Shown: positions 16,107-18,358 of the stretch, in pieces
Layout: each line of letters begins with the position of its first letter
Numbering within the stretch: position 1 is the stretch's first letter
DNA from: Methyloligellaceae bacterium
Lineage (GTDB): Bacteria > Pseudomonadota > Alphaproteobacteria > Rhizobiales > CBDHHC01
NCBI GenBank assembly: GCA_965263345.1
Contig: CBDHHC010000021.1
Span: 4,182-68,181, forward strand
DNA length: 64,000 nt
Direction: 5' to 3'
The notes under the pieces: model-generated
Told to the model about the DNA's origin: nothing
Database searches by the model: none
The model's input: the letters and a program-made list of their open reading frames with translations, nothing else
Made by a program: the position numbers and the translations under genes

Positions 16107-16135
16107 CCCAGCCGGACTGGTCATGCTGCCCTACG
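16107..16135 (+). repeat. Partial A-family repeat head (CCCAGCCGGACTGGTCATG...)
   Basis: Matches the first ~25 nt of the A elements. Confidence 0.5.
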
Positions 16136-16344
16136 GGATTCACACATCTCTACCTTTCATTGCCAGCATAAACCCTCCCAGCATGGTTGCAAGTTGTTTC
16201 CATCCTGTTGCCATGGTCTTGGGGCCTGGTGGTTTATAGTAACAGTTCCAACCGCCTAACCTGGCCACAATCCATGATAACCAACTTAGGTTTCCTTTTG
16301 AATGAGGATTTTTCTGTCGATCTGTCTTGCCTTCTAAAGTTTTT

Positions 16345-16470
16345 CCCAGCCGGACTGGTCATGTTGACCAGTCTGAGTGTTCTTGCCTTTGTTTGCGCAT
16401 CAGTTGGTGATAGGGTTTGTGCAAGAACGGTAGGGGCGCATCAGAATGATACGCCCCGCATCGGGGTCCG
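16345..16470 (+). repeat. Repeat family A copy 1 (REPIN-like)
   Basis: It has a 9-bp stem GACTGGTCA-tgt-TGACCAGTC. The inverted cores are GTTCTTGCC...GCAAGAAC. A second hairpin is GGGGCG...CGCCCC. It is nearly identical to 41761..41878. Confidence 0.85.
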
Positions 16471-16698
16471 CTTTTTTTATTTTACGTTCAGACGCCACTA
16501 AGGCTTTTCGCGCTAGGCGCGGCGCGCAGTCGCGCTTGCCATACAATATAATGAAAATTCATAATATTGTATGGTGATGAGGTTTCTTGATAGTGGGGTG
16601 TTTTATCAAAGAGGCGTGCCTTGCTTCGTCATCCCCAAATTTTGCCAGCCCATTTATTTTGCGTGCCCGACATGTGGTCTGAGCAAAATATTAGGGAT

Positions 16699-16799
16699 CC
16701 ATGCCGGACCGATCTTGCAGATCGGTCTGATGGTTCTTGCCTCTTTAGGGCTATTGCAAGAACAGTGAGGAATGGTCAGCATGACCATTCCTGCGAAGG
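16699..16799 (+). repeat. Repeat family E copy 1
   Basis: It has the hairpin GACCGATC-ttgca-GATCGGTC followed by GTTCTTGCC...GCAAGAAC. The first ~60 nt are identical to 18274..18333. Confidence 0.85.
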
Positions 16800-16894
16800 G
16801 TCAGGTGAGACGACAACCTCTGAAATTGCCAATGAGACCTTTGAAAGCGGCGCATCAGGCTGGAGCAATAATACGACTGCAACTGGCGGGGCAA

Positions 16895-17050
16895 CCCAGC
16901 CGGACTGGGCATGTTGCCCAGTCTGAGTGTTCTTGCAATTGTTTCCGCAGCATTTGGCGATGAGATTTATGCAAGAACAGCAAGATCGCATCAGAATGAA
17001 ACGACCCGCAATAAGGTTTGGTCCACAATAAAATGCACCCCACAGTGGGT
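16895..17050 (+). repeat. Repeat family A copy 2 (long variant)
   Basis: It shares the same head and core motifs. Its tail (...CGCAATAAGGTTTGGTCCACAATAAAATGCACCCC) is shared with the copy at 32546..32720. Confidence 0.8.
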
Positions 17051-17098
17051 TTAATCAAAAAATAATCATTTTGAATTTAAAAGGATTTCATTCTTCAC

Positions 17099-17617
17099 AT
17101 GAATTCAGAATGCAAAATGCCCAAAGCACGTATTATTCAAGAACAAAAAAACGGTTGTTATTTTCTCACACCCACCATTTGGAACTGGTATTATATTTTT
17201 GACAGGCATGAGCGATGGGCAATCATTGCTGACAGTTTGAAATATTGTCAGACATATAAAGGTTTGGAAATTTTTGCATATGTCTTTATGCTGAACCATC
17301 TTCATCTTATTGTCCGATCTGCAGACGTGCCAGGTTTTTTGAGAGATTTTAAAACGCATACTTCTAAAGAATTAAAGAAAAACTTGCAAGAGCATGAACC
17401 ACAAGTCTTGGAGCTTTTTCTTGATGAGGAAAAGGGGTATCGTTTTTGGAAAGATGATAACAAGCCCAAGCTGATTGAAACTGAAAAATTTTATCAGCAA
17501 AAAGTTAATTATATTCACGAAAATCCTGTCCATAAATGTTATGTTGAGCGGCCAGAATATTGGAAGTGGTCTTCTGCAAATCCTAACAGTGAGATTAGGC
17601 TTGTTGATTATCGATAA
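17099..17617 (+). CDS. IS200-like / REP-associated tyrosine transposase (RAYT, HUH Y1 family), apparently intact
   Basis: 172 aa with the HUH motif MLNHLHLIV and the catalytic-Tyr region VNYIHENPV. It is embedded among REP-like hairpins, and the hairpin GACGGATC-aaaat-GATCCGTC lies at 17637..17657 just downstream. Confidence 0.8.
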   Translation: MNSECKMPKARIIQEQKNGCYFLTPTIWNWYYIFDRHERWAIIADSLKYCQTYKGLEIFAYVFMLNHLHLIVRSADVPGFLRDFKTHTSKELKKNLQEHEPQVLELFLDEEKGYRFWKDDNKPKLIETEKFYQQKVNYIHENPVHKCYVERPEYWKWSSANPNSEIRLVDYR

Positions 17618-17693
17618 GCATAGGCAAGAACAATCAGACGGATCAAAATGATCCGTCCGGCAGGGATCGCACTAGAGGATTTGGGTCAAACTA

Positions 17694-17987
17694 ATGAAAT
17701 ATATTTTTACAGAATGGCTTCATAAATTTGAGGATGAACCCAACAAACTTTATTATGAAATTAATAATGAAAGAATTCCAACTCGGGTGATTGAGATTTA
17801 TAAAAGTGGTAAAATTGGTTTTGCTTCAAATAAATTTCAATTTCAGGGCGCTTTCCTTTCTGTTGAACCCTTACCAGAATTAGAAGAGATAAATAGTGAT
17901 TCACAATTTAAAAGTGATTATATTGATCAAGAAGAATTTGAGAAACTTTGGAAAGAAGTAATAACCCAGCCAGACTGGTCGAAATAA
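17694..17987 (+). CDS. Hypothetical small acidic protein (possible orphan immunity-type protein)
   Basis: A 97-aa ORF with no signal peptide. Its 3' end runs into an A-repeat head (ACCCAGCCAGACTGG). The function was not recognised. Confidence 0.35.
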   Translation: MKYIFTEWLHKFEDEPNKLYYEINNERIPTRVIEIYKSGKIGFASNKFQFQGAFLSVEPLPELEEINSDSQFKSDYIDQEEFEKLWKEVITQPDWSK

Positions 17988-18014
17988 CCATAAGCGCTAA
18001 CCTCGCGGGTAAGA

Positions 18015-18112
18015 CTTCTTTAATGCGACATTTGTCAAGTCTAAATTAATCAACATTGGTCAGGTTGTATACCTGACCACATTATAATGACCCAAACTTA
18101 AAGCTTCTATTC
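18015..18112 (+). repeat. Repeat family C, copy 2
   Basis: Identical to 1..98. Confidence 0.9.
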
Positions 18113-18273
18113 TACGCAATATGAGAGCCGTCTATTGGCAGGCATCATGCTTCTTTCCGGGATCAGTGCTGGCGTAATTTTACGCTCCCAATAACACTCT
18201 CCCAAGTTACTGTCCATTCAAAGAGGGAGGCCGAACAAGCTTTGCAACGTGATTGGAAAGCCCTTTGACTTAA

Positions 18274-18358
18274 CCATGCCGGACCGATCTTGCAGATCGG
18301 TCTGATGGTTCTTGCCTCTTTAGGGCTATTGCATGATGGTCAGCCATTCCTGCGAAGG
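18274..18358 (+). repeat. Repeat family E copy 2
   Basis: Same hairpin and core as 16699..16799, with a shorter tail. Confidence 0.85.

Follow-up and report, generated by a model that had tools for sequence, protein, structure and literature searches.

Repetitive extragenic palindromic (REP) elements and the REP-associated tyrosine transposases (RAYTs) that accompany them are best studied in Gammaproteobacteria, where the REPs are GTAG-tagged. REP doublets forming hairpins (REPINs) are said to have been described in Pseudomonas fluorescens, together with group 3 RAYTs, by Bertels and Rainey in 2011. Here we examine a 64,000-nucleotide stretch of DNA from a Methyloligellaceae bacterium of the Alphaproteobacteria (contig CBDHHC010000021.1, positions 4,182 to 68,181; hereafter the window), in which an intact RAYT gene at 17099..17617 is surrounded by hairpin repeats. 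We consider it likely that this locus is a REPtron, in which a RAYT gene has on both sides REPs of a lineage-specific family cognate to it. It is a genuine REP/RAYT system of a known kind in a new lineage, set apart by a REP that lacks the GTAG tag, by heterotypic doublets and by a second, decayed paralog; it does not overturn current views on REP/RAYT systems, and as a compact alphaproteobacterial example it allows candidate features of recognition (a fixed 8-nt core, a fixed distance and a free stem) to be read directly.

The E. coli system is similar in both protein and gene layout. TnpA-REP of E. coli (YafM; PDB ID: 4ER8) shares with the window RAYT the HUH/Y1 fold and a length of about 165 residues, and is both its best structural match and its only sequence-profile match in the PDB; in both systems the gene is flanked by REPs, copies are intergenic, and REP subtypes are paired in inverted orientation, like the Y and Z units of bacterial interspersed mosaic elements (BIMEs). 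The two proteins are, however, only 18% identical, the HUH motif is DHLH in E. coli and NHLH here, and the present host is an alphaproteobacterium; in place of the GTAG foot of the E. coli REP, a core of sequence GCAAGAAC is separated by 3-5 nt from a stem that is perfectly paired over 9-11 bp, has no bulge and closes on a 3-nt loop. With the P. fluorescens REPINs the locus has in common inverted REP doublets with a short spacer, a flanked RAYT that is low-copy within the window, and extragenic dispersal, but Pseudomonas REPINs pair two near-identical REPs into one long hairpin, whereas here the stems of the two arms differ and only the 8-nt cores pair. In this the doublets are closer to the Y/Z heterodimers of E. 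coli BIMEs than to Pseudomonas REPINs.

In the published classification of Y1 transposases, class 2 (TnpA-REP) carries the tyrosine signature Y---NP and class 1 (IS200) the signature Y---Q (Quentin et al. 2018, PMC6006769, Table 1). Within class 2, subclass 2.6 (Bertels group 5) has the motifs NH[LIV]H and YIH[QN]NP, both shared by the window RAYT, and a median length of 179 residues; it is flanked by 'atypical secondary structures' without GT[AG]G, with copies elsewhere in the genome (PMC6006769), as is likewise the case here within the window. Slow evolution of group 5 has been reported (Bertels et al., PMC5581495). Subclass 2.6 differs in being mostly from Bacteroidetes, in a W motif that reads WQ where the window RAYT has WK, and in listed REPs whose GCTAG foot sits directly on an 8-bp stem. 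Judged by its motifs alone the window RAYT would stand nearest to subclass 2.6, and its subclass is left open; an assignment from the supplement of Quentin et al. was not upheld, as the REPs listed there differ in their GCTAG foot and no Methylococcales relatives are included. The CGTC-tagged REPs of Alphaproteobacteria (Di Nocera et al. 2013, PMC3733652) share the host class, stems of 8-9 bp and frequent head-to-head heterodimers, but the window REPs have no CGTC, TGTC or CCTC tag, their loop is of 3 nt rather than 4-5, and their first stem pairs are not A-T. Membership of that group was rejected on tag, loop length and stem composition; CGTC repeats have moreover been reported without an associated transposase (PMC3733652), while the window REPs flank a RAYT.

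The RAYT protein

The open reading frame (ORF) at 17099..17617 encodes 172 residues and contains, as the preliminary description had noted, the HUH motif (NHLHLIV, residues 66-72) and the tyrosine motif (YIHENPV, residues 138-144). The true start is probably the ATG at 17117 (M7), giving a protein of 166 residues, because M7 is matched by the first residue of every one of the 32 aligned homologs. Across 33 relatives, N66 and H67 of the NHLHL motif (residues 66-70) are invariant and H69 is at least 90% conserved, while Y138 and P143 of YIHENP (residues 138-143) are invariant, Tyr138 being the predicted catalytic residue. The window protein holds every clade-invariant residue.

Several comparisons place the protein with the RAYTs. 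The curated RAYT model of NCBIfam, REP_Tyr_transpos (NF047646), scores it at 86.4 bits (cutoff 80) and is matched by 33/33 aligned relatives, and its YIHENP motif conforms to the class 2 signature. A profile built from 33 sequences of the RAYT clade found a single significant match in the PDB, 4ER8, in which E. coli TnpA-REP is bound to a REP hairpin (E=4e-5), and no IS608 or ISDra2 chain even at E<=10; a single-sequence phmmer search of the PDB returned noise only, so that the profile search was needed. An AlphaFold2 model (pLDDT 89.9) gave 4ER8_A as its top Foldseek match (E=1.5e-7, TM 0.63/0.66, rmsd 2.7 Å over 147 columns), with ISDra2, IS608 and IS200 ranking after it at E-values of 1e-4 to 1e-3 (at least 1.3e-4) and with worse rmsd. 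By sequence and predicted fold, the protein is classed as an intact HUH/Y1 enzyme of the TnpA-REP class, and the earlier suggestion of a RAYT rather than an ordinary IS200 TnpA is upheld.

The same comparisons bear on the alternative that the locus is an ordinary autonomous insertion sequence (IS) of IS200/IS605 type, in which the gene moves with two subterminal hairpins, and deletion derivatives of the element (miniature inverted-repeat transposable elements, MITEs) make up the short repeats. IS200/IS605 transposases such as those of IS608 and ISDra2 belong to the same fold family and use subterminal single-stranded DNA (ssDNA) hairpins as recognition elements, the role predicted for the hairpins here. 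The IS200 transposase hidden Markov model NF033573, however, scores the protein at only 13.7 bits, under its cutoff of 55; the tyrosine motif is Y---NP and not Y---Q (PMC6006769); and the ORFs adjoining the gene in the window are a DUF6881 protein and debris, with no tnpB among them. A near-identical copy of the gene is absent within the window, the only other copy being a pseudogene of 48-58% identity, so that the two are not recent transposition products, and gene-less REPs outnumber RAYT genes by 19 to 2 (one intact, one decayed).

The REP family, its doublets and a decayed paralog

In one orientation, the repeats read 5'-GCAAGAAC, 3-5 nt, a stem of 9-11 bp with a 3-nt loop, and then YGGC/TGCG. 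The 8-nt core and the short 3' flank are conserved across the REPs, and the stem varies in sequence yet remains paired, the variants including GACTGGTCA, GACCGATCT, GACGGATCA, GGAATGGTCA, GGGGCG.., GTCAGGCTT, GTCAGGGAA and GGGTAAGACTT. The sequence GTTCTTGCC occurs seven times in the window against 0.53 expected (0/100 shuffles reach seven), and the 38-nt pattern GCCGGAC-N15-GTCTGA-NN-GTTCTTGC eight times against an expectation of 0. In an alignment of 17 units, 94% of cells are paired and both sides change in 7/9 pairs; the covariation score is 0.687, compared with 0.213 in shuffled alignments (0/500 reach the observed value) and at most 0.058 with slid partners. No GT[AG]G foot, the mark of the canonical GTAG-type REPs (subclasses 2.2, 2.4, 2.5, 2.7 and 2.8), is present on either strand in any of these 17 units, the foot reading ..AATCA/ACTCA or ..GCCG instead.

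A covariance model trained on the 17 units recovered 19 at E<0.01 in the 64 kb, at eight intergenic sites, the two further matches being 43232-43283 and 32685-32736 (Table 1). Ten of the 19 units lie around the RAYT gene (16107-18362), and seven intergenic REP sites lie outside 16107-18358. All 19 fall between ORFs, several of them between convergent genes. A REP pattern of 21 specified bases had no exact match in collections of genome and metagenome contigs, among which the DNA of the source genome is thus absent.

Table 1. Coordinates of the RAYT genes, REP elements and derived units in the window.
Feature	Coordinates	Strand	Details
Partial REP of the decayed paralog's type	100..133	+	..AAGCCTGACCGGCGGGG
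REP singlet, E-right-arm type	13604..13657	-	39.7 bits; at break in truncated rhs-type toxin gene
REP debris	16107..16183		truncated REP head 16107-16131; inverted A-spacer fragment 16152-16183
A1 doublet	16340..16470		left REP 16340-16390 (-), right REP 16417-16468 (+); right stem GGGGCG/CGCCCC
E1 doublet	16694..16803		left REP 16694-16744 (-), stem GACCGATCT; right REP 16752-16803 (+), stem GGAATGGTCA
A2 doublet, upstream of RAYT	16890..17055		left REP 16890-16940 (-), right REP-like arm 16967-17018 (+), then long tail
RAYT gene (TnpA-REP-like HUH/Y1), intact	17099..17617	+	ORF, motifs, HMMs, AlphaFold model
REP singlet 3' of RAYT	17620..17670	+	GGCAAGAAC-AATCA-GACGGATCA-AAA-TGATCCGTC-CGGCAGGG; covariance model 60.8 bits
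Internally deleted A element	17965..18017	+	head 17965-17985 and tail of long A form; overlaps DUF6881 ORF stop codon
E2 doublet	18269..18362		left REP intact; right arm with internal deletion, intact in sister-strain contig L081
Decayed second RAYT paralog with own REP variant	21421..21813	-	paralog 21500-21813, REP variant 21421-21471; tblastn, covariance model
A3 doublet (decaying) and further REP variant	32541..32736		variant 32685-32736 (-); between convergent genes
A4 doublet	41754..41881		downstream of ccdB; 98% identical to A1
124-nt unit, intergenic copy	42122..42250	-	unit 42127-42250; last 17 paralog codons and paralog REP
124-nt unit, second copy, and REP variant	43077..43283		unit 43082-43205 (-); REP variant 43232-43283 (+), 20.2 bits, outside training set
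A5 doublet, right arm truncated	43599..43715		between convergent genes

Most REP units form inverted doublets that join two different REP subtypes. In the A and E doublets the cores face each other, the left unit lying on the minus strand and the right one on the plus strand; as ssDNA each doublet would form two hairpins with a GTTCTTGC:GCAAGAAC stem as the bridge between them. The left stems (GACTGGTCA, GACCGATCT) differ from the right stems (GGGGCG.., GGAATGGTCA), and it is only through the 8-nt cores that the two arms pair. The preliminary description had called these elements REPIN-like and their core usually an inverted pair. The first term holds in that A1, A2, A4 and E1 consist of inverted REPs on opposite strands with a short spacer (14-34 nt between cores), and fails in that the arms are not the same REP and form no joint long hairpin; as to the second, three exact inverted pairs are present (16379/16421, 16733/16756 and 16929/16971), with a mutated partner at four more places. 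REP singlets lie at 13604-13657 and 17620-17670.

The relationships proposed among individual copies were largely borne out. The E copies (16699-16761 and 18274-18336) are in direct orientation and 98% identical over 63 nt, and the A copies (16345-16460 and 16895-17010) share 84% identity across 116 nt, with three further A copies at 32546, 41759 and 43604; a truncated A head placed near 17968 was found at 17965-17985, and another at 16107-16131. The REP singlet downstream of the gene begins 3 nt past the stop codon, and the stretch 17616-17666 repeats the A/E head in inverted orientation (82-83% complementary). An inverted REP pair (16895-16936 and 17624-17665, 79% complementary) brackets the gene. 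The claim that every element holds the 8-9-mer was correct for A, E and the sequence after the stop codon, although the A copy at 16895 reads GTTCTTGCA and has the 8-mer only; it did not extend to the truncated heads (16107, 17965) or to element C (18015-18117). The E1 doublet has a right arm similar to the REPs found with the nearest RAYT relatives (loci L001, L002 and L005).

Element C had been listed as a member of the repeat family and was rejected as such, since the core is absent. It is a different repeat, with copies at 1-103 (beginning at the window edge) and 18015-18117 that are 98% identical, each with its own 9-bp hairpin (TGGTCAGGT/ACCTGACCA). Repeat D8 was examined and likewise excluded from the REP family.

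A second RAYT paralog, absent from the preliminary description, lies in decayed form at 21500-21813 (minus strand) with its own REP variant, GGCAAGAC-TTTTCA-GTCAGGCTT-GCA-AAGCCTGAC-CGGCGGGG. The remnant covers residues ~72-166 at 48-58% identity; it carries a frameshift, is without the HUH half and has a disrupted tyrosine motif. Its 3' end occurs twice more, in two dispersed 124-nt units (42127 and 43082) that have identical boundaries and are 98% identical to each other and 93% identical to the parent sequence (21426-21549, minus strand). The two copies share their starting base, which lies within the codons for W-K-W-S-S, invariant in the family, and GGAAATGGTC at the left end of the unit resembles the REP core of the closest relatives (GGAAATGAAC). 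Units composed of a 3' gene end and a REP were not seen in relatives, some of which carry 5' gene fragments or distant paralogs nearby instead. In several relatives from Methylococcales and Thioploca, the intact gene is closely preceded by duplicated 5' RAYT fragments of 50-104 residues (70-77% identity), at 8380-8529 and 9236-9385 in locus L024, 8956-9261 in L043 and 5309-5620 in L050.

Gene and hairpin across the clade and between strains

The RAYT clade comprises 199 relatives among GTDB species representatives, with alphaproteobacterial metagenome-assembled genomes (MAGs) at up to 70% identity and Methylococcales, Patescibacteria, Nitrospirota and deltaproteobacterial MAGs at 52-65%. In 52 of 76 homologous loci the stop codon is followed within 130 nt by a perfectly paired hairpin of 7 bp or more, and 35 of these 52 have two or more copies of it. 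In most of the 3' hairpins the loop is of 3 nt, the stem is preceded at 2-5 nt by an A-rich core, and (C/A)GC follows it. Copies 40-130 nt ahead of the start are common as well. Detailed inspection of 20 loci showed this upstream copy to be inverted in nine, L031, L052, L061, L074 and L079 among them; the closest relatives in the Alphaproteobacteria (L001-L006) have it in direct orientation. Gene-less copies number up to nine per 20 kb. The REP of the closest relatives, ATGAAC-N3-TGGAATGGGTT.., has a core (ATGAAC) one base apart from the AAGAAC of the window, at the same distance from an 11-bp stem, and this stem (GGAATGGGTT) resembles the E1 right arm.

Across the clade the hairpin stems are lineage-specific while layout and position are kept. 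Judged from these sequences, RAYT gene and hairpin travel and diverge together, which is the strongest argument for functional coupling. The proposal of a lineage-specific REP/RAYT system whose core can be read from the window is thus supported by a conserved core, a covarying hairpin and a clade-wide layout of gene and hairpin. It is extremely improbable, in our view, that the hairpin repeats are unrelated to the protein, being independent MITEs, terminators or small-RNA genes placed beside it by chance or at an insertion hot spot. The region is indeed a junkyard beside a broken rhs toxin locus, other unrelated repeats (C and D8) are present in the window, and terminator hairpins are common after stop codons. 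Against this, the same layout and position recur across ~80 homologous loci from several phyla, where stems are specific to each lineage and the gene has copies to either side; nor does a T-run follow the hairpin on the coding strand. No Rfam family matches 15900-18500 at E<=1, and a known structured RNA was rejected on that ground.

The window is chromosomal, carrying DnaE, GcvP, GlpK/GlpD and type II secretion genes. The source contig itself gives a 100% DnaE match; the nearest other DnaE sequences are 79% and 73-74% identical (a Methyloligellaceae MAG), and DnaE of other Hyphomicrobiales families is ~60-63% identical to that of the host. The identities within the RAYT clade are 52-70%, and by this measure the RAYT is about as conserved between phyla as DnaE is within an order. 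Such identity across phyla would point either to very slow evolution or to a REPtron transferred horizontally as a whole. A highly conserved, multi-phylum clade whose hairpin differs by lineage within one layout offers a natural swap series for what the RAYT reads.

A sister strain is represented by an ENA metagenome contig (L081). The block 16895-17666 (A2, RAYT and 3' REP) is 98.1% identical in the two strains, and the block 18277-22948 is 99.1% identical, while the 610-nt segment between them (window 17667-18276) is replaced in L081 (10569-11278) by unrelated sequence. The window segment contains the DUF6881 ORF (17694-17987), the truncated A element and element C; its counterpart holds an ORF fragment and a small lipoprotein-like ORF. 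Left of 16895 the two sequences are wholly different. All three synteny breakpoints (16895, 17666 and 18277) fall on REP outer ends, a lead towards genome rearrangement associated with REPs. The left break could be due to mis-assembly, but the internal replacement could not. Dispersed copies in the window are near-identical (98% for A1/A4, for the E1/E2 left arms and for the 124-nt units at 42127 and 43082), which suggests from sequence that REP activity is recent.

Some of these strain and clade comparisons speak for the autonomous IS. The block 16895-17666 (REP, gene, REP) behaves as a discrete unit between strains, as an IS200/IS605 element would, with left and right neighbours that differ in L081; a second gene remnant is present, and the 124-nt units carry the 3' coding end of the paralog. 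The flanking REPs are direct in the closest relatives (L001-L006), like IS200 ends, extra gene fragments lie near the homologs in L024, L043 and L050, and the clade is spread over several phyla at 55-70% identity. The flanking REPs are nevertheless inverted in the window and in 9/20 of the relatives inspected in detail and, with the class of the protein and the excess of gene-less REPs described above, we regard an autonomous IS as improbable.

A different alternative is a relic system, in which the RAYT is domesticated or idle and the REPs, now immobile, are kept as structural or regulatory DNA (3' hairpins, recombination hot spots), the cluster being debris. Truncation or mutation affects many units (16107, 17965, A3, A5 and the E2 right arm), the second paralog is a pseudogene, and all copies are intergenic, often between convergent genes, with the REP scoring as terminator-like on one strand. 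In L081 the RAYT (10001-10519) is called as two ORFs of 90 and 77 residues, and the A2 left hairpin is degraded, its pairing lost (33.9 bits compared with 60.2 in the window); this is either real decay or the result of errors in a 6.9x assembly, in which the frameshift may be a sequencing error. The gene in the window, by contrast, is intact with every clade-invariant residue, and 98% identical copies lie 25 kb apart. A relic seems to us rather unlikely.

If the REPtron is active, a mechanism can be proposed by analogy with E. coli TnpA-REP and IS608 TnpA (PMC3479197, PMC6006769). The protein would bind the folded hairpin on ssDNA, for example on the lagging-strand template, and the core would be read as the sequence-specific determinant, the role of GTAG in E. 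coli. The ssDNA would be cut and rejoined through a 5'-phosphotyrosine link at Tyr138, with His67 and His69 holding the metal, and REP doublets would be copied or moved to new intergenic sites while the gene stays low-copy. The cut would be expected at or beside the ..CGGC(N)GGG outer end.

Several observations weigh against a working REPtron of this description. Pfam Y1_Tnp scores the RAYT at 21.3, slightly under its cutoff of 23, and several REP copies are decaying (A3, A5 and the E2 right arm). No REP was found in 10 kb of sister-strain sequence outside the shared region, and REP density is patchy. The mode of recognition is not simply transferable from 4ER8, because the REP has no GT[AG]G foot. 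As the stem variant beside the gene is unique within the window and the abundant variants differ, the A and E elements may be served by the window RAYT, by the decayed paralog or by an unseen RAYT.

A bolder proposal, which we hold to be unlikely, is that the RAYT clade represents a REPtron that is transferred horizontally and has kept its mobility, and that stands between an IS and a domesticated RAYT. REP outer ends would then be cut-and-join sites, REP-bounded slots would exchange neighbouring gene cassettes, and fragments of adjoining genes could be taken along by the system. Under this proposal the toxin-immunity-type ORFs that differ between the window and L081 would exemplify cassette exchange, and the 124-nt unit, with its start within the paralog's W-K-W-S-S codons, would exemplify a carried gene piece.

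Neighbouring loci

The rhs-type polymorphic toxin locus to the left of the cluster (11965-16087) looks broken, and the long RHS repeat region is missing. Its order is an SpvB-like ORF, an FG-GAP ORF, the REP at 13604-13657 and an ORF combining RHS-core, PT-HINT and C-terminal toxin regions (to 15738); a small overlapping ORF at 15701-16087, at the end of the locus, probably encodes immunity. Elsewhere in the window are a ccdA/ccdB pair (41164-41723) and a tandem glycine riboswitch at 51214-51399 (minus strand), upstream of gcvT (49758-50867) and gcvP (46838-49705). A 113-nt repeat, with copies at 883-995 and 44643-44755 that are 85% identical and contain a TTGACA..TATATA promoter-like stretch, is probably a shared regulatory region and not a REP. 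A tRNA-Glu gene lies at 57304-57378.

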